In this document: positions 24,315 to 60,611 of the stretch, piece after piece | Numbering within the stretch: position 1 is the stretch's first letter | Layout: the number at the start of each line of letters is the position of its first letter | NCBI GenBank assembly: GCA_963704905.1 | Contig: CAVPHZ010000001.1 | Coordinates: 643,438 to 707,437, forward strand | Source of the DNA: Candidatus Chisholmbacteria bacterium | GTDB taxonomy: Bacteria; Patescibacteriota; Microgenomatia; UBA1400; Chisholmbacteraceae | Reading direction: 5' to 3' | DNA: 64,000 nucleotides | The notes under the pieces: generated by a model | Databases searched by the model: none | What the model saw: the letters and a program-made list of their open reading frames with translations, nothing else | What the model was told of the DNA's origin: nothing | Translations under genes and position numbers: made by a program

Positions 24315-27122
24315 CTAGTATTCGTTTGACCACCAGTTTCGCATCGGATTTGAGACTCTTTTTTTCAATAGTTTTCTGAAAGGTTCAAGAGGTTTAGTGG
24401 TAAAGCTGAGGGTAATAGTAATGATGATTGTGAGTAGACTCATAGTCGGCAACCCCCAAGTTGTGAGGTTACCTCTAAATCTGAGATCGACTTCTATCGA
24501 ACTTTGCCAAAGGTCTTTTGGAATTGGAATGTACATGAAGCCAAAACTTGCTTTAAGAATTGGAGCTTTGGATCCATTTACCGTTGCCTTCCAGCCTGGA
24601 TGGTAATTTTCTTTAAACATGATACCGGTAGCGTTGGTGGTTCTGATATTGACTGTTGAGGGGTTTGGACGCTCTACGAGGAAATCTCCGGTGGTGATGT
24701 CTGTCTGTGCCACATCTTCCATGATGTTGGCAAGAAGTTCTACCTCTTCAAAGTTGTTGTAACTGATAATGTGGTAGGGCAAGTTGAAGCCCGAGAAGAT
24801 AATTTTACCTTCACCGATAGTACCTTCTGAGAGAATTGGACGGTTGTTTTGCAGAAGCACTGGAGTGACCCATTCTTCAAGCTGTGTTTGGCTAGAAGGG
24901 GCTACGATTTTCCAGGCATCTTGTCCGTAGCGAAGCGGAGCAAATTGGGATTTGTTTATGCCTTGGATTAGCGGTGAGTTCAGCTCTTTGAGCTGCCATT
25001 CTGATTCTTCATCGTACAGCTCAAGCGATTCTATTCCAGGAACTTGCGGTATATTTGTGCCATATTTTTCTACAGCTCCAATATCTACATACACAAGTCC
25101 ACCATTTTCGATGAATGTTTCTATGGTTTGCCACTCGGATCCGGTGAATTGATATAACACCAATGCGTCGACTTGGTTGAGGAGCTGTTGATTTAGATCA
25201 TTTATTGATTCAGGTCCTTTGATGAGGATGAGATTTTTTAAGGCTGGATAAGTAAATGAAAATGCCCGTAACAAGGTGTCGTAGCCAGATCGGTCTGTGA
25301 CGGTGAGGACACGACCTGCATTGGTTGGGGTGATTATTGGGGAAGTGTACTCTCTGCTCAGCTCGGAAAATGTCCAATTCTTGAGTTTTTCATCCTTTGC
25401 AATTAGACCTCTCATCCCAATGATATCGGAGTCGTATCCCACGAGATCTGCACCTACCGATTCTGATGACTCATGGATGTAGCCGATCCCATATGCTTCC
25501 AGAAGTGAGAGACCTCGATTTTTTCTCAGCCTTTCGGGAGTTTGGTCGTCAGGAGTGGGAGTGAGCAGGGACTTTTGGAAGAAAAAGAGCCAGTCTTGAC
25601 CGGATTCTGGAGGAAGGTTGGCGTACCCCCTTATTGAGGGGGTATTTGAATACGCATTCCACCAGATATAAAAATTGGGACGAATGCTTTCAACACGCCA
25701 GTTATGATCATTTACAGGCATCCAATTGGGAATGACTTCTGAGGTTGGAGACTCTTGATATTTTTCAATAATATATTTTTCAAGCCCGGCTGGAATTGTG
25801 GCGGAGATGGGAGTGACTCGAGTAATGTCAAAGCGAAGCGTGTTTGAAACGATTGGTAGCGAAAGCGCGATGAGAATGACAAAGACAGAGCTAGTCATGG
25901 TTGCGATTTTTTCGTCCAAGGATTTAATTCTTCCAAAAGCCGTTGCTGCTAGGGTGAGAATAGATAGACTCAGAGCCCAAAACATTTGTTGAGGGGCAAA
26001 TTCTCCTGAAATGTTGTTGATAAGCTTGAGTTTTGCGAGCATCACGAAGGTTACCAGCCATACGATTATGATCGTTAGACTTTTTAGTTGACTTGGTGTT
26101 GAAGTGCGTTTTTTCCAGATGAGATAGATCAATGGCAATAGGAATGTTGCAACTGGAATAAGCATTGTGAGGCTAAACCAGCGAAGGTCTTCCGGGTAGT
26201 TACCCCAGCAAAGAAGATTGTTACATGGACCAGCAGTTGTGCCTGCGATTTGGCCGTTTATTAATTGAAATGAGACTGGTAGCGAGGCTAGTATGGCAAT
26301 ACCTAAAAACAAGACAATCTGACTAGCCTTTGTTTTGAATGGCTGTTTGTCTGAGAAAAAGAGAAATATGAGTACCGGTATGATAATGGTTATGATGGCA
26401 GAGATTGGATGGAGGAGGAGAGCAGCTGCAGCAAGTAGTGCAGCGGTAGTGAGATAGCCATGCTTTCGACGAAATGAGAATTTACTGATGAGTAGGAGGA
26501 TGATTGGAAGTAGCAGAGCGACACTTGAAATAGGAATTGTTCCCTTGACAACGACGTTGAAGTAGGTAGCAGGAGTGATAAGCAGAATGAAGGTGAATAT
26601 GAGAGCAACGAGAATGCTTCTACTCTTTTCAAAAAAGAGGATGATCGCACTTATTAGATAGAAAAGGATCATCAGCATTGCAGCAAGTTGCAGGCTGGTG
26701 ACAGTGTCGAGAAAATGGGTAAGTGGTGAAATGAGATAGTAGAAGAGTGTGGGGTAGCCACCAATTACTGGCACACCTTCATTCCAGAATGACATCCAGC
26801 CGGTTGGAGGAAATGGTTTTTGTTGGGAGATGAATTTGAACAGTGTTAGGTCGTTGAGGAACAAGCCGCCGAAGACCTGGTTTGCTTCAAGGTAGGGTTT
26901 GGCAATTCTAATGTACCAGATGACAGTGATGAGGATTGCTGAGCATGCCAGAAGTACTAGGTTGAAACCTTCTTTGGCGAGTGATGCGAGTAATTTTTTT
27001 TTAAATTCAGTTTCGGATTGTTGCTCAACTTGTTTTGTAACAGCAAGTTTTGAAACAAAGGTTCTGGTACGTTGTCTTCGATTGAATGATCTTCGCTTCG
27101 TCATACTTTTGTTGTTTTCCAT
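24315..27122 (-). CDS. Giant GT-C-like polytopic membrane protein, third paralog of the 7245/11233 family
   Basis: Acidic first-loop 'FLNDLTLF', 'NFYIWWNAYSNTPSIRGYANLPP', 'VDALVLYQFTGSEWQTIETFIENGGLVYVDIGA', 'FKENYHPGWKATVNGS'. Confidence 0.6.
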   Translation of the reverse strand: MENNKSMTKRRSFNRRQRTRTFVSKLAVTKQVEQQSETEFKKKLLASLAKEGFNLVLLACSAILITVIWYIRIAKPYLEANQVFGGLFLNDLTLFKFISQQKPFPPTGWMSFWNEGVPVIGGYPTLFYYLISPLTHFLDTVTSLQLAAMLMILFYLISAIILFFEKSRSILVALIFTFILLITPATYFNVVVKGTIPISSVALLLPIILLLISKFSFRRKHGYLTTAALLAAAALLLHPISAIITIIIPVLIFLFFSDKQPFKTKASQIVLFLGIAILASLPVSFQLINGQIAGTTAGPCNNLLCWGNYPEDLRWFSLTMLIPVATFLLPLIYLIWKKRTSTPSQLKSLTIIIVWLVTFVMLAKLKLINNISGEFAPQQMFWALSLSILTLAATAFGRIKSLDEKIATMTSSVFVILIALSLPIVSNTLRFDITRVTPISATIPAGLEKYIIEKYQESPTSEVIPNWMPVNDHNWRVESIRPNFYIWWNAYSNTPSIRGYANLPPESGQDWLFFFQKSLLTPTPDDQTPERLRKNRGLSLLEAYGIGYIHESSESVGADLVGYDSDIIGMRGLIAKDEKLKNWTFSELSREYTSPIITPTNAGRVLTVTDRSGYDTLLRAFSFTYPALKNLILIKGPESINDLNQQLLNQVDALVLYQFTGSEWQTIETFIENGGLVYVDIGAVEKYGTNIPQVPGIESLELYDEESEWQLKELNSPLIQGINKSQFAPLRYGQDAWKIVAPSSQTQLEEWVTPVLLQNNRPILSEGTIGEGKIIFSGFNLPYHIISYNNFEEVELLANIMEDVAQTDITTGDFLVERPNPSTVNIRTTNATGIMFKENYHPGWKATVNGSKAPILKASFGFMYIPIPKDLWQSSIEVDLRFRGNLTTWGLPTMSLLTIIITITLSFTTKPLEPFRKLLKKRVSNPMRNWWSNEY

Positions 27123-30407: not shown

Positions 30408-30515
30408 ATTACCGAGAGCTTAACAGAGTAGTCGACCATACTTCAAGTCTTCTAGTAAGAATTATGGGGGTACAATATGCTTTCATTTGCCGGAAAAGGG
30501 TATAATTTTCAAATC

Positions 30516-31412
30516 ATGAAGAAATATCTGTTAGTCATCGCTAGTTTACTTTTATTGGCTTTTGTTCCTCAGTCTTCCTATGCTCAGGAATCTGAAGAGC
30601 TCTTGATGACTGAGGCAACGGAGAGTGCGGAAGCGACACCAGCTTCTATTCTTGAAAGTGAGTTGGAAAAACTCAAGGAAACTGATTTGACTGAGCCAAC
30701 CGGTCCTGCGCGGGGAAAGCTTGAACAGTACATGCTTTCGAAAGATCCCGGCCCGTTAGGCATAACCAATTTTTTACAACATGCGATGCGCCGGTCAGTT
30801 GAGCTGGGAGTGCCGGCTACTACTTTGGTACTCTTGCTGTTGTTTCCAATCGTTGGTGCCGTTATTGCTGCAGGCAGACACTTGATTGGATTGAGAGGAT
30901 TTGGCTTGTTTACGACTGCGGCTTTATCAATTGCTTTTTTGGCAACAGGAGTGAAAGTTGGCCTGATCATGTTTATCTTTATCATGTTGGTGGCAAATTT
31001 TGGTCGTGTGATGGTGAGAAGATTGCGTTTGCAATACCTCCCGCGTATTGCACTCCTTTTATGGTTTGTTTCGCTGGGTATTTTTGCATTGCTTTCTATC
31101 TCTCCATATCTTGGAATTTTAGAGCTGATAACTATTTCTATTTTTCCAATTTTACTTCTAGTGCTGTTTGCAGAGACGTATATCGGTGCACGGATTGGAG
31201 TGGGATTTCGAAGATCTATTGAAATGACTGTTGAAACAATCGTTTTGGCTGTCATCTGCTATCTGATTTTGAGTTTGGATTCTTTGCAGCGGTTTGCCGT
31301 GCTTAATCCAGAGATGACGGTGTTATCGGTGGCGGTGTTTGATATCTTTCTGGGAAAGTATGTTGGACTGCGATTGCTTGAGTATTGGAGATTTCGTGAG
31401 CTGTTAAGCTAA
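30516..31412 (+). CDS. Secreted/7-TM membrane protein of the type usually fused to an inactive transglutaminase (7TM_transglut-like). The transglutaminase domain is missing here.
   Basis: Signal peptide 'MKKYLLVIASLLLLAFVPQSSYA', ~90-aa acidic ectodomain, then 7 hydrophobic helices. Immediately upstream of a RimK-like ATP-grasp, the gene neighbourhood described for this family. Confidence 0.5.
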   Translation: MKKYLLVIASLLLLAFVPQSSYAQESEELLMTEATESAEATPASILESELEKLKETDLTEPTGPARGKLEQYMLSKDPGPLGITNFLQHAMRRSVELGVPATTLVLLLLFPIVGAVIAAGRHLIGLRGFGLFTTAALSIAFLATGVKVGLIMFIFIMLVANFGRVMVRRLRLQYLPRIALLLWFVSLGIFALLSISPYLGILELITISIFPILLLVLFAETYIGARIGVGFRRSIEMTVETIVLAVICYLILSLDSLQRFAVLNPEMTVLSVAVFDIFLGKYVGLRLLEYWRFRELLS

Positions 31413-31421
31413 GAGGGGAAT

Positions 31422-32705
31422 ATGAGTATTACTTCGGATATTCTGGGACTCAATGCCAGAAATCATTTATACACCAGTCAATTTAATTCCCGAAAGGGGA
31501 AAAAAATTGCGCAGAGCAAACTGCTTACCAAGCGTTTTCTGAAGAAGCATGGTTTTCCTCATCCTGAGCTTTTTGCTGTATTTAAAAAATTGAATGATGT
31601 GCCAAAGTATGACTGGGGGAGTTTACGAAGAAATTTCGTGATTAAGCCAAGTGAGGGATACGGAGGAGATGGTATTCTTATCATCAAGCGCCGGATCGAC
31701 TCTGAACGATTTCAGACTATTCAAAATAAGGAACTATTGATTGATGACTTGAAACTTCATGTGCTTGATATTCTGGAGGGAAATTACAGCAAGTATGACA
31801 CACCGGATATCGCATTTATCGAAGAGCGTGTACCGAAGCATCCGAAATTTAAGCGTTATGCCTATCGAGGCACTCCGGATATCCGTATCTTAATTTTCAA
31901 CCAAGTTCCGATTATGGCCATGCTGAGATTACCGACGCAAAACTCAGGTGGGAAGGCGAATCTTCATCAAGGAGGACTGTGTGTGGGTTTAGATTTGGCT
32001 ACCGGAATTACCACGCATGGGATGATTTATGATCGCCCGGTTACTACTGTTCCAGACAGCAATTTGAAAGTTAATGGCCTTCGCATACCTCATTGGGACG
32101 AGATGCTTACCATTGCACTCAAGGTGCAGGAGAAGATTGGACTTGGATATCTGGCAGTGGATTTTGTCCTTCATAAAGACAAAGGGCCGATGGTGTTGGA
32201 GTTGACAGTGAGTGCGGGATTAGGAATTCAAATAGCCAATAGAGCTGGTTTGCGGAGAAGACTCGATCGAGTGGAGGGATTGGAGAGTGTCGGTGAGGGG
32301 CGGGGTATTCAGATTTCCAGAGCTTTGTTTGCAGAGCGATTTGCAGACAAAGTACTAGCCGAACGTGGGGCAAAGATTGTCAATATTCAAGAGACCGTCA
32401 AAGTCAAAAGTGCTAAAGGGAAGCGAGTTGAAGTTGAGGCAAAGCTTGATACCGGTGCTTTCCGTACGAGTATTGATAGAAAAGTGGCGGAGGACTTAGG
32501 TCTGTTGGGGAAGAAGAGCTATTTGTGGCATAAATATTATGTGAGTACCCTCGGGCGAGAACGACGACCGATTATTGAGTTGACGTTTTGGTTAAAAGGT
32601 CGTCGGGTAAAAACAGCAGCCAACGTATCGAATCGGATTCGATTTCGGGAGAAACTCCTGATTGGGCGAAGAGATCTCAAGACCTTTCTGGTTCGGGCAG
32701 AATAA
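31422..32705 (+). CDS. RimK-like ATP-grasp amidoligase fused to a C-terminal retropepsin-like aspartic peptidase domain
   Basis: ATP-grasp body ('VIKPSEGYGGDGILII', 'LAVDFVLHKDKGPMVLELTVSAGL'); C-terminal ~110 aa carries 'AKLDTGAFRTSI' (D-T-G-A catalytic motif, codons 32448-32456). Confidence 0.65.
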   Translation: MSITSDILGLNARNHLYTSQFNSRKGKKIAQSKLLTKRFLKKHGFPHPELFAVFKKLNDVPKYDWGSLRRNFVIKPSEGYGGDGILIIKRRIDSERFQTIQNKELLIDDLKLHVLDILEGNYSKYDTPDIAFIEERVPKHPKFKRYAYRGTPDIRILIFNQVPIMAMLRLPTQNSGGKANLHQGGLCVGLDLATGITTHGMIYDRPVTTVPDSNLKVNGLRIPHWDEMLTIALKVQEKIGLGYLAVDFVLHKDKGPMVLELTVSAGLGIQIANRAGLRRRLDRVEGLESVGEGRGIQISRALFAERFADKVLAERGAKIVNIQETVKVKSAKGKRVEVEAKLDTGAFRTSIDRKVAEDLGLLGKKSYLWHKYYVSTLGRERRPIIELTFWLKGRRVKTAANVSNRIRFREKLLIGRRDLKTFLVRAE

Positions 32706-32709
32706 TTCT

Positions 32710-34179
32710 ATGATTTCAATTTCTTCATTACCTGAAGCGAGAAACGCATTGCATGGTATTGGGAAAGTCGTAGGATTGGGAGTCAATGCTTTTCCTCGCG
32801 TTGGCATTATTCCTTTCCTTGATGATTATCAAATTATCGCTATAACCGAAACTGCTGATCTTTCCATCATTCGCAGAGATGTTTCAGTTGTAACCGTGAA
32901 TGGTGATTTTCGTGGGAGGACGAAGAAACTTAATACCCTCTCGCTACTTCAGCACCAGAAAGTGCAACAGCAGTTGAAAAAACAGAGTAAAGGAACCGGT
33001 GTTTTTATATATAAGTCGTCAAAACGAATTGAAGAGATCGTTGACCGCTTGGGTTTAAAGCTTCTGTCAAATCGCAGTGAGGTACGTGATTCCTTTGAAG
33101 ATAAATGGAAGTTTAGACAACTGGCACTGATTGCCGGATTACCCATCCCGGCAGGTGCGCAACTGTTAATAGATGAATTTACTCCAGAATGGTATGCAAC
33201 TGCGCGGAAAGCGTATGGTTCTCAATTGGTTATCCAAATTACTGATTACTCAAAAGGTGGAGGAATCGGAACCTTTTTCATTTCGAGTTTGGAGGATGTA
33301 CGAGAATTTCATGCATTTGTTAGCCGTCGGCGTAAGGCAGGGAGAGATTTACAGCGGATGAATATCACGACGCGTATTGATGGTGAGTCGGCGAGCATTA
33401 GTGCTTGTGCAACTCGTCATGGAATACTTGTTTCTCGGGTACAACGGCAGATTGTGGATGTCCATGATGTGGTTGGATATCACGGCAGGAGCGGTGTTTT
33501 TTGCGGGCATGATTGGGGAAATCGATACGGAGATGCAATTCAAAAGGAAGCCAGTAAGATCGCCCAAGATGTTGGTAAGCTGATGTTTTCCAAAGGATAT
33601 CGGGGGATATTTGGTGTTGATTTGGTTGTCAATCAACATACCGGTGATATTCATTTGATTGAGGTGAATTCTCGGTACACGGCGGCATATCCTGTATATA
33701 CCATGATGCAGCTTGCGCATGACGAAATTCCCTTAGATGCTTGGCATCTTTTGGAATTCTCTGATATTGAATATGAAATGGATTTTGATGAGATCCAGCA
33801 ACTGTATGAGCGGCCAAAGGTTGGGGCCCAGCTTATCTTGCATAACCTGGAACGAGCCTGGGTGAATGTAGGTGGAAGTGTGAAAGCAGGGGTGTATTCA
33901 TTTAGGTCAAATGCAAAAGGTCAAAAATTAAAATCCGACCTGGAATGGGTAAGGGAAGGATATAGATTTCAAGATTTGAAATCTGAAAGTGAATTTGTGT
34001 TGACAGATGGTGTGCCTAAGAGAGGATCGAAATTAAAACCAGGAGCGAGGTTAGGAAGGTTGCTCTACAGACGAGAAGTCATGCAAGATGATCGCAACGA
34101 ACTTCAATCAGAAATCAAGGGGAGTGTTCAAGCGCTGTACTCTTTATATGGTTTAAAAAGAGTTACGAAGAAAAAATAA
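32710..34179 (+). CDS. ATP-grasp ligase (start at ATG 32710, 5 nt after the upstream stop; the ORF track starts at 32662 in the same frame)
   Basis: 'GIFGVDLVVNQHTGDIHLIEVNSRYTAAYP' (E-x-N Mg-binding motif of ATP-grasp enzymes), glycine-rich 'KGGGIGTFFI'. Confidence 0.65.
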   Translation: MISISSLPEARNALHGIGKVVGLGVNAFPRVGIIPFLDDYQIIAITETADLSIIRRDVSVVTVNGDFRGRTKKLNTLSLLQHQKVQQQLKKQSKGTGVFIYKSSKRIEEIVDRLGLKLLSNRSEVRDSFEDKWKFRQLALIAGLPIPAGAQLLIDEFTPEWYATARKAYGSQLVIQITDYSKGGGIGTFFISSLEDVREFHAFVSRRRKAGRDLQRMNITTRIDGESASISACATRHGILVSRVQRQIVDVHDVVGYHGRSGVFCGHDWGNRYGDAIQKEASKIAQDVGKLMFSKGYRGIFGVDLVVNQHTGDIHLIEVNSRYTAAYPVYTMMQLAHDEIPLDAWHLLEFSDIEYEMDFDEIQQLYERPKVGAQLILHNLERAWVNVGGSVKAGVYSFRSNAKGQKLKSDLEWVREGYRFQDLKSESEFVLTDGVPKRGSKLKPGARLGRLLYRREVMQDDRNELQSEIKGSVQALYSLYGLKRVTKKK

Positions 34180-35155
34180 ACTTCAATAATTTTTCAGTAA
34201 CGGGCTGGGGTTTTCCACTATTTGGCCATTCATGAAGACGGAGCGAAGGATCAGAGTTGACTTCAAGAACCGCAATATTTAAAGGTTCGGAACCTTTAAT
34301 CGCTGGTTGGGTGTAGTCTTTGATAAGCGCGTCTATACCGCAGACTGTTAGTCCGGTTGCATGGGCAGTTTTCTCGATGACATCGATTATTGAGGTGTGA
34401 ATATCGTTTAATGAGATGGTTTCGACGGTCCCGCCCGCTTGGAAGTTGGCAATAGGGTAGGGTACAAGCTTCTTGTCTTTTGGGACTATTGAGTTCAGCG
34501 TCAGGCCTTGGTTTTCGATGTGCCAGATAATGCGAGGCCAGTTGAGCATGCGGTTTTGCATTCTCCTGCCAGTTTTCTTTCTTTCTTCTAAGAGTCTTTG
34601 GTTGTGAGTTTCTATAAGATCTTTGATTGTGTTGTTTCCGTCTCCTGTGAGCACTGGCGGATGACGGCGGACGACTCCGATTATCTTTCCGCTTAAAATG
34701 AAGAAACGAAAATCATCAGCCTTGATGTACTTTTGGATAATTAGTGAATTGGAATGCTTGATCGCCTGTCGAGCAGTATTTTCCAGAGATCGCCGATTTT
34801 TTATCCCTATGTAGACATCATGGCCTTTTTCCCCTTCGGATGGTTTTACAACCAGAGGAAATTTAGGTAGATTGACTTTCTCAAGATCTTGGATCGATTT
34901 CATCTCAGTCTCTTCTGGATAAGGAATATTAAGTTTGTCAAGGAGTTGGTGTGTGATTCTTTTGTTTCTTGTTTGTTTGATAGCTTTTACAGGATTGATT
35001 CCGTAGCTTTTTTTAGTGACGATGTGAGTTTTTCCGTCCTTGGTGAGTTTAAGCTTCAGCTTTTCTTCATCAAGAAGATCTACATTAATCCCTAGAGATT
35101 GCGCTGTTGCGATAAGAATTTGAGAGTTGGTGTTGGGAATTTTGGAGAGCAACAT
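34163..35155 (-). CDS. ATP-grasp ligase (cyanophycin-synthetase/RimK-like)
   Basis: 'LVVKPSEGEKGHDVYIG', 'IIQKYI', 'NIAVLEVNSDPSL' E-x-N motif. Confidence 0.65.
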   Translation of the reverse strand: MLLSKIPNTNSQILIATAQSLGINVDLLDEEKLKLKLTKDGKTHIVTKKSYGINPVKAIKQTRNKRITHQLLDKLNIPYPEETEMKSIQDLEKVNLPKFPLVVKPSEGEKGHDVYIGIKNRRSLENTARQAIKHSNSLIIQKYIKADDFRFFILSGKIIGVVRRHPPVLTGDGNNTIKDLIETHNQRLLEERKKTGRRMQNRMLNWPRIIWHIENQGLTLNSIVPKDKKLVPYPIANFQAGGTVETISLNDIHTSIIDVIEKTAHATGLTVCGIDALIKDYTQPAIKGSEPLNIAVLEVNSDPSLRLHEWPNSGKPQPVTEKLLKFIFSS

Positions 35156-35158
35156 TGA

Positions 35159-35716
35159 TCAGCGTTCTTGGTCAGGGTTTTCTTTAGACTGTTTTTCTTT
35201 CAGGGCACTTTCGAGTGTGGTCCACAGCTCCTTAAGTGCTCCTTTAGGCAATGATCTGACCGTTCGAAAGAACTGCATTCCGTTTTGGGTAAATTTTTCA
35301 ATGGTACCTGATTCAACCAGCTTATGTTTCTGATCTTGAATACCAATTGTGGCGTTTAGTGCGGTAACAATTTCTGCTTCTCTTTTTGGAAATTTTTCGA
35401 GTGTATGCGCTGCGGCGATCCAAGAAAATATCGTTTCAACCGCTAAGCTGTTTAGCAGCCTTTTTCCGTTTGGAAGAATAATATTTTCTGGCTCGATACC
35501 AAGCTGTTCTCGCAGATAGGCTTCCTGCCGGTCAGTATTGCTTGTACCTTTGTCTTCGATGTCTCTTTTTTTGAGCGGAACGACATAGTTTCTATCAGGT
35601 GAAGTAAGTTTTAGAACTTCTAGTTCCTGAAGATGTCTAATATCTTCAGCGGTTATCAGTCTGGTATTTTCAATCCGCTCGGCAATGGATTCTGGCTGTT
35701 GAGGTAACTCTGTCAC
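35159..35716 (-). CDS. Hypothetical protein (185 aa), translationally coupled to the downstream ATP-grasp
   Basis: Stop overlaps or abuts the next start (35159 vs 35155); no motif recognised. Confidence 0.4.
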   Translation of the reverse strand: MTELPQQPESIAERIENTRLITAEDIRHLQELEVLKLTSPDRNYVVPLKKRDIEDKGTSNTDRQEAYLREQLGIEPENIILPNGKRLLNSLAVETIFSWIAAAHTLEKFPKREAEIVTALNATIGIQDQKHKLVESGTIEKFTQNGMQFFRTVRSLPKGALKELWTTLESALKEKQSKENPDQER

Positions 35717-35786
35717 GCTAATATTCTATCTGATTAAGCAAGCGGTTGGTATAATTCATAAATCTGGTTGAAAGGATGTTTGTCTC

Positions 35787-36998
35787 ATGAAGAAATTTAT
35801 ACTTGTTCTAGGTTTTGGTCGGTCTGTGAAGCGGCTGTTTGATGTGATTGAGCGGGAGTTTTCTGAGCATACTCCTGTGTACTGTACTTATGGGAAGCGG
35901 CTGGAGTTTTTCGAGAAGAATGCGTTTTGTTTTCTAAAAAATGGGGAAGAGGAAACGCGGATTCGGACTGTTGTTGATGGAAAAGGCAAGGTGGTGGGGG
36001 TCGTAAACCTCACTGATAGTTACATTGATTTACATGGAAAGTTGGTTGATATCTTCAAGGTTCCCGGCCCTTCGTTTTCGGCTGTTAGTCTGGTGAAGAA
36101 CAAGGCTAAGTTGTTTAGGCTCATGGTTGAGAACGGTTTGGCCGACTTTCATCCCAAATCGGTGGTCATTGAGCTTAATGAGGTTGAGCACGAAATTGAG
36201 AGATTTGGCTATCCGTGCGTGCTTAAGCCGGTTGTGGGGAGCAAGAGCAGAGGAGTGTTTGTGATTCGTAGCTCCAACGGTCTTCAAAGGGCATTAAAAC
36301 GGCTCAACAAACACTTCTCGCAGATTACCATCCGTCGGAATTTGGAAGCCAAGAATGTACTTTTACAAGAGTATGTCACCGGTCAACAGGTTGCACCAGT
36401 TTCATACGTTGATGCTGAAGGTGAGCTGAGGATTATTGCCGAAGTAGACGTACTTTGTGGAACTGATGTTGGACAGCAGCATATGCAGTGTGTGTACCGA
36501 ACGACCCCTTCAGTGCTGGATAAAGCAATGATGCAGCAGATACAGCAATTACTGCAACAAATTGTGAAGGCCGCAGGGCTCAGATCGACACTGCTGGATC
36601 CTGAGCTGATGATTAGTGGGAGAGGCCTGAAACTGATGGAAATTAATGCTCGGTTGGGTGGATACCGGACAGAATTGTTTAAACCCGCATATGGGATTGA
36701 TCTAGAGAAAATGGTGGTTCAGTTGGCGCTGGGAGAGGAACTGGATATTGATTTGAAAAAGAAAGAGAGTTGTACAGCAGTTGAGGTATGGGAAGAGAAG
36801 AGCGGGAGACTCTTAGAATTTTCTTTTCCTAATCAGGATCAAGTTTATCATTATGAGCAGCTTATTCAGAAGGGTGAGGAGTATTTGGTGCCTCCTGAAG
36901 GAGATGTTCCGATTGCTTCATTTTATGTTCTGGCTCAATCAGACAGTTTGAAAAAAGCTCAGGAGATTCGGAGGACCATCTCAACCTCGATTTCTTAA
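35787..36998 (+). CDS. ATP-grasp ligase (PurK/Ddl/CPSase-type ATP-grasp_4-like)
   Basis: 'GYPCVLKPVVGSKSRGVFVI', 'LLQEYVTGQ', 'LKLMEINARLGGY' E-x-N motif. Confidence 0.65.
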   Translation: MKKFILVLGFGRSVKRLFDVIEREFSEHTPVYCTYGKRLEFFEKNAFCFLKNGEEETRIRTVVDGKGKVVGVVNLTDSYIDLHGKLVDIFKVPGPSFSAVSLVKNKAKLFRLMVENGLADFHPKSVVIELNEVEHEIERFGYPCVLKPVVGSKSRGVFVIRSSNGLQRALKRLNKHFSQITIRRNLEAKNVLLQEYVTGQQVAPVSYVDAEGELRIIAEVDVLCGTDVGQQHMQCVYRTTPSVLDKAMMQQIQQLLQQIVKAAGLRSTLLDPELMISGRGLKLMEINARLGGYRTELFKPAYGIDLEKMVVQLALGEELDIDLKKKESCTAVEVWEEKSGRLLEFSFPNQDQVYHYEQLIQKGEEYLVPPEGDVPIASFYVLAQSDSLKKAQEIRRTISTSIS

Positions 36999-41100: not shown

Positions 41101-41107
41101 TTTTATT

Positions 41108-42597
<1,490 letters not shown>

Positions 42598-44411: not shown

Positions 44412-45458
<1,047 letters not shown>

Positions 45459-49321: not shown

Positions 49322-52300
49322 TTACTGCGAAGCACCTCCTTGGAGTGCGGTTAACAGCGCGATGTTCTGCGCCATTGAGCCGATGTAGTCAGCAGCGCTG
49401 GCTACGATTCCAAGGTTGACTGCGAGGTCTGCGCGGGCGCTGAACGAAGCGTCCATGTCCGCTTGGACCAAACAGTCGACAACGGATACTCCCGAATAAT
49501 CTGCGCAGGCGGCTGCCTGTGCATCCGAGAGTGTTGAACTGTTCGAGCTTGCATCGATCGGTTGTCCCGTCAATGGGGCAGCCAACTCTTGCGAAGTAGG
49601 GGTAAGGCGGTCTGGAGACCACCAGCCGGGTTTGACACCGACCAGCGAATCCTGATTCAGACCTTCGAGTACTCGCAGCTCGGTGGGCAGACCTTCGTTG
49701 TCAAGCTCAGCAACATTGAGGTTGCCTTCGATGAGCATTACAACGTATCCACCACCGGGGCGAAACGCCAGTGATTCGGCGTCTGTGCTGAAGATTTTGT
49801 CATCGCCACTCTGCAAGTAGGGCTTTGAAACGAACTGCCCTGCCTGTTGCATCACCCAAGCTTCCTGGTCGGGATACCAGGTGATGCTGGTGGTTGCGCC
49901 TTCGACACCGAGGGCATCGGCTTCGAGAGCTGTCGCTCCGACCTCCGCTTTCTGAATAGAGGCGGTGTTCACGATGGTTTCGCAAACCATAACCAATCCG
50001 TCTGGGCTGACGACTGGTTTCTGGCAGTCCGAAGCCATGAGCTCCCGCTCTGACCCGTCGAGCTTGATGCGTTCGACTGTGTACTTTCCATCCCTCTCAG
50101 CAGTGAAGTAGACATGATTGTCGGTGCTAGTGAAGGGATGCAGTTCATTGACATCAGCGGTGTCGGTCAGCTGGTGAGGAGTTCCGCCGAACACGGGCAT
50201 AGAGTAGAGGTCACTTTGATCCTCTGTTTCGACAGAGAAGTCCCACTGGCAACCGTCCTTGGTGATCGAAATCACCGGGTCGGTGCTTTTACCATCCAAA
50301 TCGATTTTCACATCGACCTGGGGTTCGTGGGTGAACGTTCCGTCGGCAATCTCGTCCAGGATGTACGAGATCGTCATGCCCTGCTTCCAAAAGATGTGCT
50401 CTTCAGGAAGACACTGAGCTACCTGCGCGATGACTTCGGGCGGAGCTTGCGTTGTCGTCGGCGGTTCCTCAAAGGTGACGCTGTCGTTACAGGTAACTGA
50501 GCCACCTGGGCCGGTGACCGTAAAGGTCAGGTCGTAGGTTCCAGCGGAGGTGTACTGATGCTCGCGCATCTCCGTACCGCTCATACCCTCGAAACCAACC
50601 TCGGTTTCATCGCCCCATTCGAGGATTTGCCATCCCTCGCCATTTTCCCAGCTTGCGTTAGCGTTGATGCGCCGTTCCTCTTGCGAGGTGATTTCGGTGC
50701 TCAGACTGCAGGTGGGTGCCGGCGGAGGTGGCGGAGGCTCAAAGGTGACGCTGTCGTTACAGGTAACTGAGCCACCTGGGCCGGTGACCGTAAAGGTCAG
50801 GTCGTAGGTTCCAGCGGAGGTGTACTGATGCTCGCGCATCTCCGTACCGCTCATACCCTCGAAACCAACCTCGGTTTCATCGCCCCATTCGAGGATTTGC
50901 CATCCCTCGCCATTTTCCCAGCTTGCGTTAGCGTTGATGCGCCGTTCCTCTTGCGAGGTGATTTCGGTGCTCAGACTGCAGGTGGGTGCCGGTGGAGGTG
51001 GCGGAGGCTCAAAGGTGACCTTAGCCTTGCATGTTACCTTTCCACCAGGGCCATGAACAACCAAGCGCAGACGGTAGGTTCCAGCCTCTGGATACACATG
51101 GGTTTCCTCAAAGGTCCCATCAGTACCAGCGAAAGAAACTTGTTCGCCATTGTGGCCCCAGTACAGGGTGGTTCCATCCTCATAAGCGTTGCCATAGCTG
51201 CCACTGGCTACTGCCTCGTACAGGTTGTCAGTAGTGCTGACTTCCAAACTGCAGGTGGGTGCCGGCGGAGGTGGCGGAGGCTCAAAGGTGACCTTAGCCT
51301 TGCATGTTACCTTTCCACCAGGGCCATGAACAACCAAGCGCAGACGGTAGGTTCCAGCCTCTGGATACACATGGGTTTCCTCAAAGGTCCCATCAGTACC
51401 AGCGAAAGAAACTTGTTCGCCATTGTGGCCCCAGTACAGGGTGGTTCCATCCTCATAAGCGTTGCCATAGCTGCCACTGGCTACTGCCTCGTACAGGTTG
51501 TCAGTAGTGCTGACTTCCAAACTGCAGGTGGGTGCCGGCGGAGGTGGCGGAGGCTCAAAGGTAACTTCATCCGAGCAGCTTGTGGTGCCACCGGGTCCGG
51601 TAACCGTGAACTCTTGGACATACGTTCCGTAGTCCGAGAACTGATGCTCACGGGTCTCGTTGCCGGAAGCTCCTTGAAAGCCAACATCGGTTCCATCACC
51701 CCAGGTGAGGATGTGCCAGTCTTCATTACCGCCGTCCCAGCTCACGTTGGTGCTGATCTGCTTCTCGTCTTCGTTGACGACGGTGGTGTTCACCGAGCAG
51801 GTGGGTGCCGGCGGAGGTGGCGGGGGTTCCTCAAAGGTAACTTCATCCGAGCAGCTTGTGGTGCCACCGGGTCCGGTAACCGTGAACTCTTGGACATACG
51901 TTCCGTAGTCCGAGAACTGATGCTCACGGGTCTCGTTGCCGGAAGCTCCTTGAAAGCCAACATCGGTTCCATCACCCCAGGTGAGGATGTGCCAGTCTTC
52001 ATTACCGCCGTCCCAGCTCACGTTGGTGCTGATCTGCTTCTCGTCTTCGTTGACGACGGTGGTGTTCACCGAGCAGGTGGGTGCCGGCGGAGGTGGCGGG
52101 GGGCAATCCGGTTTGTAGATCGTTCCGGATGCGCTCCATGTATCGATCACGTTACCTTCACCATCATACCAGGTGACAGTTACGGACCAGTCCGCCGACT
52201 GTTGTCCATCAGCCCAGGTTCCGACGAGGTTCGAGCTTTCCGTTATTACACCTTCTTGGCCATTCCAGACGGTATTCACCTTGACTTCCCAGCCTTCGCA

Positions 52301-53041
52301 GGTGGGACATTCGGTGACGTCGCCGTGCCAGTCAGGAGTAACTGGAACGCAGCTTCTATTGTCCACCGTTGCGGTGGGGTTAAAGTTCACTGCGGTCTCG
52401 TCCATGCAGCCGGGGATTTCCACAGGCTCTACGGGCGGATACTCACAGCTCCCATTGTCCACCGTTGCGGTGGGGTTAAAGTTCACTGCGGTCTCGTCCA
52501 TGCAGCCGGGGATTTCCACAGGCTCTACGGGCGGATACTCACAGCTCCCATTGTCCACCGTTGCGGTGGGGTTAAAGTTCACTGCGGTCTCGTCCATGCA
52601 GCCGGGGATTTCCACAGGCTCTACGGGCGGATACTCACAGCTCCCATTGTCCACCGTTGCGGTGGGGTTAAAGTTCACTGCGGTCTCGTCCATGCAGCCG
52701 GGGATTTCCTTCGGAGGTTCCGGTGTTGGATCCTCTTTTGGGGGTTCCACAATCTCAGTGACTACTGGACCAACCTCTTCAGTAACAACAGGATCTCCAC
52801 TCCCATCATTAACTGGAGGCATTTCTGATGGATTGATAGGATCGGGCTCGCTGCCGCGATCCTTGTCCTCTGTGAGGACGGGCTGATCTACAACCACTCC
52901 CTCCGCGGGTGCGGGGGGATTGTTGTCCTGGGCAAAAGCCATGGGCACGAACGCGAAGTTCGATGCGATCATAGCAATCGCCAGGATTAACCCGATTATA
53001 TTCGGGGTTTTGCGGGATAACCGCAAGAGCTTGCTTTTCAT
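49322..53041 (-). CDS. Giant secreted surface protein (1239 aa). Signal peptide; Pro-rich region; 4x Cys-bracketed 32-aa repeat; 6 PKD-like domains as three exact duplicate pairs joined by 'EPPPPPPAPT' linkers; TolB-like beta-propeller region; C-terminal unknown domain.
   Basis: RBS 'aaggaga' 8 nt upstream of ATG 53041; 'MKSKLL...FVPMAFAQD' signal; PKD signature 'WHILTWGDGTDV...HQFSDYGTYVQEFTVTGPGG'; 'YFTAERDGKYTV...VVSPDG' propeller blades. Confidence 0.65.
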   Translation of the reverse strand: MKSKLLRLSRKTPNIIGLILAIAMIASNFAFVPMAFAQDNNPPAPAEGVVVDQPVLTEDKDRGSEPDPINPSEMPPVNDGSGDPVVTEEVGPVVTEIVEPPKEDPTPEPPKEIPGCMDETAVNFNPTATVDNGSCEYPPVEPVEIPGCMDETAVNFNPTATVDNGSCEYPPVEPVEIPGCMDETAVNFNPTATVDNGSCEYPPVEPVEIPGCMDETAVNFNPTATVDNRSCVPVTPDWHGDVTECPTCEGWEVKVNTVWNGQEGVITESSNLVGTWADGQQSADWSVTVTWYDGEGNVIDTWSASGTIYKPDCPPPPPPAPTCSVNTTVVNEDEKQISTNVSWDGGNEDWHILTWGDGTDVGFQGASGNETREHQFSDYGTYVQEFTVTGPGGTTSCSDEVTFEEPPPPPPAPTCSVNTTVVNEDEKQISTNVSWDGGNEDWHILTWGDGTDVGFQGASGNETREHQFSDYGTYVQEFTVTGPGGTTSCSDEVTFEPPPPPPAPTCSLEVSTTDNLYEAVASGSYGNAYEDGTTLYWGHNGEQVSFAGTDGTFEETHVYPEAGTYRLRLVVHGPGGKVTCKAKVTFEPPPPPPAPTCSLEVSTTDNLYEAVASGSYGNAYEDGTTLYWGHNGEQVSFAGTDGTFEETHVYPEAGTYRLRLVVHGPGGKVTCKAKVTFEPPPPPPAPTCSLSTEITSQEERRINANASWENGEGWQILEWGDETEVGFEGMSGTEMREHQYTSAGTYDLTFTVTGPGGSVTCNDSVTFEPPPPPPAPTCSLSTEITSQEERRINANASWENGEGWQILEWGDETEVGFEGMSGTEMREHQYTSAGTYDLTFTVTGPGGSVTCNDSVTFEEPPTTTQAPPEVIAQVAQCLPEEHIFWKQGMTISYILDEIADGTFTHEPQVDVKIDLDGKSTDPVISITKDGCQWDFSVETEDQSDLYSMPVFGGTPHQLTDTADVNELHPFTSTDNHVYFTAERDGKYTVERIKLDGSERELMASDCQKPVVSPDGLVMVCETIVNTASIQKAEVGATALEADALGVEGATTSITWYPDQEAWVMQQAGQFVSKPYLQSGDDKIFSTDAESLAFRPGGGYVVMLIEGNLNVAELDNEGLPTELRVLEGLNQDSLVGVKPGWWSPDRLTPTSQELAAPLTGQPIDASSNSSTLSDAQAAACADYSGVSVVDCLVQADMDASFSARADLAVNLGIVASAADYIGSMAQNIALLTALQGGASQ
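50472..52091 (-). repeat. Three consecutive pairs of perfectly identical ~270-276-bp coding units (PKD-domain duplications) inside the giant gene
   Basis: 50472-50741 equals 50742-51011; 51012-51281 equals 51282-51551; 51552-51821 equals 51822-52091 apart from one 6-nt difference. Read directly from the sequence. Confidence 0.8.
52345..52728 (-). repeat. Four tandem 96-bp units encoding 'EIPGCMDETAVNFNPTATVDNGSCEYPPVEPV'
   Basis: Unit 'actcacagctcccattgtccaccgttgcggtggggttaaagttcactgcggtctcgtccatgcagccggggatttccacaggctctacgggcggat' repeated head-to-tail; first and last copies slightly variant. Confidence 0.8.
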
Positions 53042-57371: not shown

Positions 57372-60370
<2,999 letters not shown>

Positions 60371-60493: not shown

Positions 60494-60611
60494 TGCTGGT
60501 CTTTTGAGCGGGGTGGCCCTACCTCTTCCCATACCGAACAGAGTCGTCAAACACCCCAGCGCTGACGATAGTGCTACCGCAAGGTTGCGCGAAAATAGGT
60601 CAAGGCCAGCA
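60494..60611 (+). rRNA. rrf: 5S ribosomal RNA
   Basis: 5' 'ttgctggtc' pairs with 3' 'ggccagca'; internal 'cccataccgaacagag' loop C block; followed by 'tttttgtgg'. Confidence 0.8.

Follow-up and report, generated by a model that had tools for sequence, protein, structure and literature searches.

A candidate phyla radiation variant of the RloB/RloC amidoligase core accompanied by additional ATP-grasp ligases in Candidatus Chisholmbacteria

Introduction

In 2009, Iyer, Abhiman, Burroughs and Aravind reportedly predicted a bacterial system composed of a seven-transmembrane (7TM) protein bearing a transglutaminase domain that is inactive, a RimK-like ATP-grasp ligase and a PF05618 peptidase. Here, we analyze a gene cluster that resembles this system and contains several additional ATP-grasp genes. 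The cluster lies in a 64,000-nt stretch of DNA from a Candidatus Chisholmbacteria bacterium (GCA_963704905.1, CAVPHZ010000001.1 positions 643,438-707,437, forward strand), which we refer to as the window; coordinates given without a locus label are those of the window. A preliminary description of this DNA had presented the cluster as an expanded form of the predicted system, and had regarded it as the best candidate in this DNA for an undescribed system.

Among the closest known relatives are the Rlo proteins of Pseudomonas aeruginosa, two of which, RloB and RloA, are now named in NCBIfam. In this species, where the system was studied genetically in 2025, RloB, RloC and RloA are encoded in one operon and RloA cuts stretches of at least eight Glu residues (Lormand et al. 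2025, PMC11957051). Deletion of either rloB or rloC suppresses the hypo-osmotic lethality of an rloA1-3 triple mutant, which argues that RloB and RloC make something that the protease must process (PMC11957051). Mutants in rlo genes are affected in cell shape, β-lactam sensitivity and hypo-osmotic survival, and the Vibrio orthologs belong to the VxrAB cell-wall-damage regulon (PMC11957051). The RloB/RloC system of Pseudomonas influences antibiotic tolerance, biofilm formation and cell shape. RimB, a cytoplasmic homolog, shortens the polyglutamate that RimK produces and takes Glu tails off RpsF, and a RimB-RimK hybrid protein that occurs naturally is active (Little et al. 2025, PMC11957791).

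Results

Gene content and layout of the cluster

Six close-set ORFs (open reading frames) occupy positions 30477-36998 on strands +, +, +, -, - and +, and are lettered A to F in positional order. Four of them are ATP-grasp genes, all within 6.5 kb. The number, positions and orientations of the ORFs agree with the preliminary description. Scans of all six proteins against Pfam and NCBIfam with curated cut-offs likewise bore out the gene content that it had listed, namely four ATP-grasp enzymes, one of them a RimK-like/retropepsin fusion, a 7TM protein with a signal peptide and a 185-aa orphan.

A, 30477..31412, + strand: signal peptide, acidic extracytoplasmic segment of ~70 aa and 7TM domain (PF14402); RloB-like
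B, 31422..32705, + strand: fusion of an RloC/RimK-like ATP-grasp ligase to a retropepsin-like aspartic peptidase at the C terminus
B ligase domain, aa 13-285, nt 31458-32276, + strand: PF14397 at 2.8e-64
B retropepsin domain, aa 316-427, nt 32367-32702, + strand: profile matches to 9g59, 9g58 and 2pma
B predicted catalytic D-T-G-A codons, 32448..32459, aa 343-346, + strand: invariant in alignment A1 (see below)
C, 32710..34179, + strand: ATP-grasp ligase of 489 aa in three domains; structural class biotin-carboxylase/PurK/L-amino-acid-ligase
D, 34163..35155, - strand: 330-aa stand-alone ATP-grasp ligase homologous to the cyanophycin synthetase G domain
E, 35159..35716, - strand: soluble orphan of 185 aa that lies 3 nt upstream of D
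F, 35787..36998, + strand: 403-aa ATP-grasp_4 ligase, L-amino-acid-ligase-like

Genes A, B and C are tightly coupled. A and B are separated by 9 nt, and B and C by 4 nt if C starts at the ATG at 32710; the C frame is open from a TTG at 32662, and a start there would make B and C overlap by 44 nt. E is separated from D by 3 nt, and C and D overlap by 17 nt at their 3' ends. An overlapping pair was thus correctly noted in the preliminary description, but none of the measured distances is exactly the 5 nt that it gave for one gap. A scan of the cluster for promoters and terminators returned counts no higher than those obtained with shuffled sequence. The start of A is ambiguous, with a second possible start at the ATG at 30516, which opens the signal peptide (MKKYLL...); the A proteins of relatives are 302-306 aa long, so the later start fits. 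A TATAAT hexamer is found at 30501-30506, 9 nt 5' of this ATG, and the mRNA of A would possibly be nearly leaderless if the later start is used.

A and B correspond to RloB and RloC

The 311-aa protein A matched the Pfam family PF14402 (7TM_transglut) over aa 118-309 with 80.7 bits against a cut-off of 25 (E 1.5e-22). It aligned only to RloB residues 312-506, which form the C-terminal 7TM half of that protein, and scored 64.8 bits against NF052267 (cut-off 900). The inactive transglutaminase domain of the RloB architecture is absent: where RloB has ~510 residues, A begins with a signal peptide followed by an acidic linker. By hydropathy analysis, A has the signal peptide, a stretch of ~70 acidic residues, some seven hydrophobic helices and a tail that is short and basic. 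The cytoplasmic tail (31370-31412) contains the motif G-(K/R)-Y-x-G-L-R-L-x-E-Y-x-R-F, which is near-invariant among orthologs. A few orthologs finish in encoded acidic runs (EEEEE in L114, EEDEEE in L013 and DDEE in L094, where L-numbers label loci from homology scans of other genomes and metagenomes), and the window protein ends in ...RELLS. The acidic ends recall the Glu-Glu acceptor end of RpsF.

B matched PF14397 (ATPgrasp_ST) with 217.4 bits against a cut-off of 31.4. Its score against TIGR02291 (alpha-L-glutamate ligase-like) was 276.6 bits, which places it in that family but below the hypothetical-equivalog cut-off of 314.2, and its score against TIGR00768 was 49.5 bits, far from the 143.4 that defines the RimK family. 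The nearest named relative, with 79% identity, is from Candidatus Chisholmbacteria. In an AlphaFold2 model, the ATP-grasp domain is confidently predicted, and a disordered linker of ~40 aa (residues 275-315, predicted local distance difference test score <50) connects it to a C-terminal domain rich in beta structure. In a fold search, the closest solved structures to the ligase part were ArgX/LysX bound to LysW and RimK bound to RpsF (5zk6). The Mg-binding motif of B (aa 260-262) reads E-L-T in place of E-x-N, and the preliminary claim that all four ligases carry E-x-N is correct as quoted for C, D and F but not for B. The same substitution is present in 55 of the 120 closest relatives and the rest keep the Asn; because it is conserved and clade-specific, the variant is probably functional.

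The whole-chain fold search of B was dominated by the ATP-grasp domain, and we tested the retropepsin domain with a sequence profile instead. The chain showed weak aspartic-peptidase matches at aa 322-422. Taken alone, the window sequence of this domain scored 17.8 against PF05618 (gathering score 27), and many homologs carry a precomputed match to this family. The profile of the domain matched solved PF05618 proteins, with 9g59 at E 5.5e-6 and also 9g58 and 2pma. In an alignment of 17 B homologs (A1), the invariant residues were K341-x-D343-T-G-A346, R382, R405 and G415-R416, which are retropepsin hallmarks, and K341, the D-T-G-A motif, Arg382, Arg405 and Arg416 are kept in most loci of the type found in the candidate phyla radiation (CPR). 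By alignment to 9g59, the conserved K341, R382, R405 and R416 would match K46, R114 and R137 of RloA. The domain thus combines PF05618 homology with a catalytic D-T/S-G-A motif.

The position of this peptidase differs from that of RloA. RloA is secreted and stands alone; the peptidase of the window is the C-terminal domain of the cytoplasmic ligase B and is therefore itself cytoplasmic, and models of RloA1-3 gave 19-20 bits vs cut-offs of 210-280. Retropepsins with one DTG per chain work as dimers, and since B has a single DTG per chain, it would have to dimerize for proteolysis. The arrangement is also close to the Rim system, in which a cytoplasmic glutamate ligase is joined to or paired with a retropepsin that trims polyglutamate, and the fold of B is near that of RimK. 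Unlike the Rim proteins, however, B belongs to PF14397 rather than to the RimK family and has a 7TM partner, the Rim target RpsF is not implicated, and the peptidase is C-terminal in B but N-terminal in the RimB-RimK hybrid.

Together, these data identify A-B as a CPR variant of the RloB/RloC core. As in the Rlo system, a PF14402 7TM protein is encoded just 5' of a PF14397/TIGR02291-type ligase, a D-T-G-A retropepsin belongs to the unit and the ligase is paired with a protease; none of the NCBIfam equivalog models for RloB, RloC and RloA scored as high as its cut-off. The core of what the preliminary description had taken for a candidate undescribed system has thus already been described, and corresponds to RloB/RloC of P. 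aeruginosa (PMC11957051). The CPR variant itself had no prior description in our literature searches, which combined Patescibacteria with RimK and MATCAP with ATP-grasp. Four features were not found in the searchable literature: a 7TM protein without the transglutaminase domain, the fusion of a retropepsin to the C terminus of the ligase, a cassette of accessory ligases that recurs but varies and the apparent exchange of the B retropepsin for MATCAP or another retropepsin, the last two of which are described below.

Extra ligase genes follow the CPR-type core

A genome scan with the A1 profile produced 80 loci, in which the window proteins were searched with tblastn and phmmer. A homolog of A lies directly 5' of B in ~76 of the 80. 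The loci have two architectures: a proteobacterial one, in which RloB has ~510 aa and RloC ~325 aa, and a CPR-type one, whose A has 210-340 aa and whose fused B has 420-500 aa. Named CPR-type records come from Woesebacteria, Beckwithbacteria, Levybacteria, Kaiserbacteria, Paceibacterota, Moraniibacteriota and Patescibacteria.

We ran a panel of ATP-grasp queries against all ORFs of the loci. Of the CPR-type loci found through B, 29 had at least 3 kb of downstream sequence. In 21 of these 29, one to three extra ATP-grasp ORFs lie within 6 kb downstream of B, compared with none of 28 upstream flanks (Fisher p = 2.6e-9; loci found through C, D or F were excluded from this statistic). In total, the 158 kb of sequence downstream of B held 35 extra ligase ORFs, and the 224 kb upstream held none. 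Most of these ORFs share the strand of B, many overlap its stop codon by 3-6 nt, and sampled downstream ORFs were RimK-type ligases according to Pfam. None of ~45 proteobacterial rloBC loci carries extra ATP-grasp genes on either side, which together with a MATCAP gene in some loci sets the CPR-type core apart from its proteobacterial counterpart.

Several gene orders illustrate this arrangement. In the Chisholmbacteria loci L081-83, a glycosyltransferase island is followed by A-B-C-E'-D-mnmA, and mnmA recurs as the downstream boundary. In L086, A-B is followed by genes for 301 and 604 aa (RimK-type). We considered a FemAB-like identity for the 301-aa product and rejected it, as no Pfam match was obtained. 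Upstream of A-B in L086, L088, L093, L094 and L095, a recurrent block contains genes for thioredoxin and its reductase, glutamate dehydrogenase, in some loci ferredoxin, and DsbA; that a glutamate dehydrogenase gene lies near one for a putative glutamate ligase may have significance, or may be no more than lineage synteny. As read from the sequence, mobile-type genes are inserted between B and C in two loci, a VapBC-like antitoxin/PIN pair in L012 (2046-2746) and a Fic-domain gene with the motif HPFIDGNGRTAR in L002 (2049-3077).

The preliminary description also drew attention to a glycosylation island beside the cluster. The island does adjoin the cluster in the window and in Chisholmbacteria-like relatives, but not in the loci examined outside this lineage. 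We rejected a functional link because the adjacency is limited to this close lineage.

Searches that started from the accessory genes led back to the same core. Homologs of C with 30-43% identity lie beside A-B pairs in L088 (A-B-C), in L089 (A-B-MATCAP-181aa-C) and in L091, where A-B-RimK-type-C-D-like places four ligases in series. Homologs of F (37-44% identity) lie within A-B clusters in three of the three contexts examined: L093 (A-B-retropepsin-RimK-type-F-...-D-like-MFS, the last a major facilitator superfamily gene), L094 (A-B-F-RimK-type-mnmA) and L095 (A-B-RimK-type-F). Orthologs of D are present in L081, L012 and L002, and D-like genes follow A-B in L018, L025, L026, L030, L031, L091, L093, L114, L129 and L130. 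A metagenome scan with a D alignment retrieved mostly full-length cyanophycin synthetases and RimK genes, and only L114, L129, L130 and L147 were informative; stand-alone D-like genes were found in L114 and L130 (A-B-MATCAP-D) and in L129 (A-B-...-RimK-D).

The peptidase appears to be exchanged in some loci

Alignment of all fused B proteins showed that L018, L025, L114 and L130 read A-L-x-N-T-G-R where others have KxDTGA, and that the arginines are lost. In each of these four loci, a PF08014 MATCAP-like metallocarboxypeptidase gene lies directly after B. The B protein of L031 shows the same change, and its contig ends shortly after B, so that no MATCAP gene could be confirmed. In L093, a degenerate B retropepsin is followed by a separate gene for a 116-aa RimB-like retropepsin. 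The B retropepsin of L023 likewise lacks the catalytic Asp. Because an inactive B retropepsin is accompanied by another peptidase, the system appears to need a peptidase. The replacement of an endopeptidase by a carboxypeptidase further points to a substrate that would be a peptide with a free C terminus.

The pairing of ligases with PF08014 MATCAP in L018, L025, L089, L114 and L130 follows the same add-and-remove logic as tubulin tyrosine ligase (TTL) and MATCAP. The CPR loci differ in their bacterial context and 7TM partner, and the window contains no MATCAP gene.

Accessory proteins C, D, F and E

The catalytic motifs are intact in C, D and F. C matched ATP-grasp_3 and, remotely, PRK06524. 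Its fold is about equally close to PurK, biotin carboxylase and L-amino-acid ligases, with a sequence identity of only 12-15%, and the same low identity and an additional C-terminal beta-rich region of ~100 aa separate it from the L-amino-acid and other ATP-grasp peptide ligases BL00235, BacD, PGM1, BesA and LdmS. The C family is small (57 matches). D304, E318, N320, R322 and the glycine-rich loop are invariant, so C should be catalytically active.

D scored 179.6 bits against TIGR02068 (cut-off 850) over model residues 164-472, and matched the G domain of CphA1 (PDB 7txv, residues 217-480) at E 7.8e-32, as well as CphA2 and the GshB half of GshAB. It is homologous to the C-terminal half of GshAB and to NAGGN synthetase, enzymes that like the CphA1 G domain extend a peptide C-terminal carboxylate (27-30% identity over ~270 aa). 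Unlike CphA1 and GshAB, however, D lacks the Mur-ligase-like M domain, the N domain and the GshA half: its 330 aa comprise the G domain alone, compared with N+G+M in ~870 aa for cyanophycin synthetase. As an ATP-grasp domain alone, D cannot be a cyanophycin or glutathione synthetase as such.

F belongs to PF13535 (ATP-grasp_4; 74 bits against a cut-off of 27, E 1.3e-20). It matched the L-amino-acid ligase-like structure PDB 3vot at E 2.5e-10 and BacD at 1.3e-6 and has the MEINAR motif (E-x-N-x-R); its predicted activity would be dipeptide synthesis from free amino acids. The family is rare, with five close homologs.

Pfam placed E in no family, its one NCBIfam hit was not significant (E 0.006, far below the cut-off), and only 6-7 relatives were found among 1.84 billion representative proteins. 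A homolog with 31% identity adjoins D in L081, where the gene order is inverted, and another adjoins C in L147. The two genes are on the minus strand in both DNAs, in opposite order (window 34163-35716, L081 12828-14421), which indicates a local rearrangement in the accessory cassette. Sequence change in E is much more rapid than in B (31% compared with 79% identity). We considered E as an acceptor protein like LysW or RpsF and rejected this role because neither E (...PDQER) nor its homolog (...ARKKA) has an acidic C terminus. We also rejected E as a conserved accessory beyond the Chisholmbacteria-like lineage, since the 181-aa ORF at a comparable position in L089 is unrelated.

A housekeeping identity for the ligases would have undermined the preliminary proposal. 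Against families for housekeeping roles (PurK, PurT, PurD, Ddl, AccC, CarB and GshB), the four ligases scored 12-84 bits with cut-offs of 243-1027; examples are purK at 18.6/318, Ddl at no more than 34/243 and accC at 28/626, and cyanophycin synthetase likewise reached 180/850. Judged by these family scores, no ligase of the cluster is a housekeeping enzyme.

Other features of the window

Upstream of the cluster, the glycosyltransferase island includes a 935-aa polytopic membrane protein (24315-27122, minus strand) with weak YfhO and PTPS_related matches, which is conserved with the island in L081 and L084. It is probably a glycan or lipid-linked-sugar transferase that lies outside the ligase system. 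The rRNA genes of the window are not contiguous: the 16S gene (41102-42595) is apart from tRNA-Ile (55440), tRNA-Ala (57047), 23S (57385-60364) and 5S (60495-60611). About 12.8 kb of protein-coding sequence separates 16S from tRNA-Ile and includes genes for an Obg GTPase (44439-45458) and, in a patch whose GC content is 0.57 compared with ~0.43 elsewhere, for a PKD-repeat protein of 1239 aa (49322-53041). A 190-aa ORF lies between tRNA-Ile and tRNA-Ala.

Discussion

We propose that the cluster is a CPR form of the membrane-associated RloB/RloC amidoligase system that carries a variable cassette of accessory ligases, a reading to which we assign a probability of roughly 0.55. The preliminary view of an expanded 7TM/RimK-like ligase/retropepsin system agrees with the PF14402 and PF14397 assignments of A and B and with the recurrence of extra ligases. 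Because the same modular layout recurs in related bacteria, the genes probably specify one pathway that builds and trims a peptide at the membrane. In the cytoplasm, the RimK/LysX-like ligase domain of B would use ATP to polymerize or extend an acidic, likely Glu-rich chain, which could be a free peptide or a tail on a carrier. C (biotin-carboxylase/L-amino-acid-ligase class), D (CphA-G/GshB class) and F (L-amino-acid-ligase class) would add or pre-assemble further residues, with D-class ligases extending the C-terminal carboxylate of a peptide and F-class ligases making or extending dipeptides; as the preliminary description suggested, ligation may proceed stepwise onto a single substrate. 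The fused retropepsin of B would dimerize and trim the chain, a step done by secreted RloA in Pseudomonas. A would dock the ligase by its conserved cytoplasmic tail and then export, anchor or sense the product at the envelope, and E may be a lineage-specific accessory of D. Since accessory ligase sets differ by strain, the products would differ as well.

Several points count against this proposal. We know of no product for any member of the system, including Pseudomonas RloC, and polyglutamate is therefore an extrapolation from protease specificity. The E-L-T motif of B, without the Asn of E-x-N, may alter or weaken its ligase activity. D-E and F lie on different strands of the window as separate transcription units and need not be co-regulated. 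L084 and L085, whose B is 81% identical to that of the window, read A-B-C-mnmA with no D, E or F, which indicates that the accessory set is variable and that the six genes are not a fixed unit. The synteny anticipated in the preliminary description thus holds for the C and F families beside A-B and for the ligases after B, but D, E and F are not always present. In L092, a homolog of C has RimK, GshB-like and Opp transporter genes as neighbors and no A-B pair is visible, although the contig ends there. More generally, the accessory families (RimK-type, C, D and F) vary by lineage, and this pattern fits alternative or independent products just as readily as one stepwise pathway. The loci are also phylogenetically related, so that the Fisher test overstates their independence, and several CPR-type records among third-party-annotation metagenome-assembled genomes bear proteobacterial names that are unconfirmed.

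Other explanations have to be set against these data. It is possible, though doubtful, that the system reversibly tails the C terminus of a specific protein, as RimK/RimB do on S6 and TTL/MATCAP on tubulin, and that the 7TM protein is the target, by way of its cytoplasmic tail, or a membrane regulator, rather than an exporter. The nearest structural neighbors of B are indeed ligases bound to protein C termini (RimK-RpsF in 5zk6 and ArgX/LysX-LysW), the Glu tails of RpsF are taken off by RimB, carboxypeptidases of the MATCAP type turn up repeatedly in the cluster, and the cytoplasmic tail of A is highly conserved, with acidic ends in L114, L013 and L094. The window A, however, does not end in Glu, the cluster encodes no carrier with an acidic C terminus (the ends of E and its homolog are not acidic), four ligase classes would be unusual for one tail, and Rlo genetics suggest an envelope role. 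We consider it unlikely that a variable slot between A-B and mnmA has gathered functionally independent ligases, for instance for making dipeptide osmolytes, storage polymers or thiols, so that only A-B, and perhaps C, would form a system. Such a slot would account for the loss of D, E and F from the close relative L084, the inverted D/E order between the window and L081, the toxin-antitoxin and Fic genes between B and C in L012 and L002 and the recurrent mnmA boundary, and the D relatives NAGGN synthetase and GshAB make small soluble peptides. It does not explain why extra ligases occur only downstream of B, with none in 224 kb of upstream flank, or why the rare F family was in A-B clusters in all three contexts, and the appearance of D-like and MATCAP genes directly after B where the B protease is dead is hard to explain without a shared substrate.

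The envelope phenotypes of rlo mutants (shape, β-lactam and hypo-osmotic) and the VxrAB regulon raise the prospect that the ligases decorate peptidoglycan precursors or lipid-linked intermediates with amino acids, comparable to ATP-grasp D-aspartate ligases, while the 7TM protein holds the substrate. Two unrelated loci (L089 9760-11997 and L091 6749-9430) have genes for class A penicillin-binding proteins (transglycosylase plus transpeptidase) shortly downstream of the cluster, and in the window the glycosyltransferase island adjoins it; both are in keeping with this idea. Nevertheless, we regard it as improbable: both adjacencies are lineage-specific, it is not obvious what a polyglutamate-type endopeptidase would do here, the suspected FemAB-like gene of L086 has no Pfam match, and the cluster contains no Mur-ligase or lipid-carrier genes. 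Least probable by far are housekeeping enzymes, a graspetide (a peptide made by the ribosome and modified after translation) or anti-phage defense. The ligases do give weak sub-threshold matches to housekeeping families, and the fold of C resembles PurK and biotin carboxylase, but every match is far below its curated cut-off. A PADLOC scan returned no matches, which speaks against defense, and a graspetide was rejected because the intergenic spaces of 69, 70 and 137 nt hold no plausible precursor-peptide ORF.

Within the proposed RloB/RloC-type system, we suggest tentatively, as a less probable extension, a further step, in which the cluster is a modular assembly line built only of ATP-grasp enzymes. 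The RloC-like ligase and interchangeable C-, D-, F- and RimK-type ligases, counterbalanced by the fused retropepsin or by a MATCAP carboxypeptidase in its place, would build a strain-specific heteropeptide of defined sequence without ribosomes or nonribosomal peptide synthetases. The peptide would reach the cell surface by passing through the 7TM protein or being loaded onto it. The CPR variants are natural experiments that constrain the chemistry of RloB/RloC: fusion of the protease to the ligase would allow processing in the cytoplasm, and this arrangement, the C-terminus-extending classes of the accessory ligases and the carboxypeptidase in place of an inactive endopeptidase jointly suggest that the working substrate is a peptide chain whose C terminus is free. 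Their compact, co-linear sets of three to six genes suit heterologous expression to find the product. The cluster would also represent a rare dedicated biosynthetic module in CPR genomes, which have lost most biosynthesis. If the assembly-line reading is true, the ligase complement would encode the peptide sequence, and the peptide could have a role in envelope homeostasis or host-cell contact; a surface or interaction trait would be expected to vary in this way from strain to strain.

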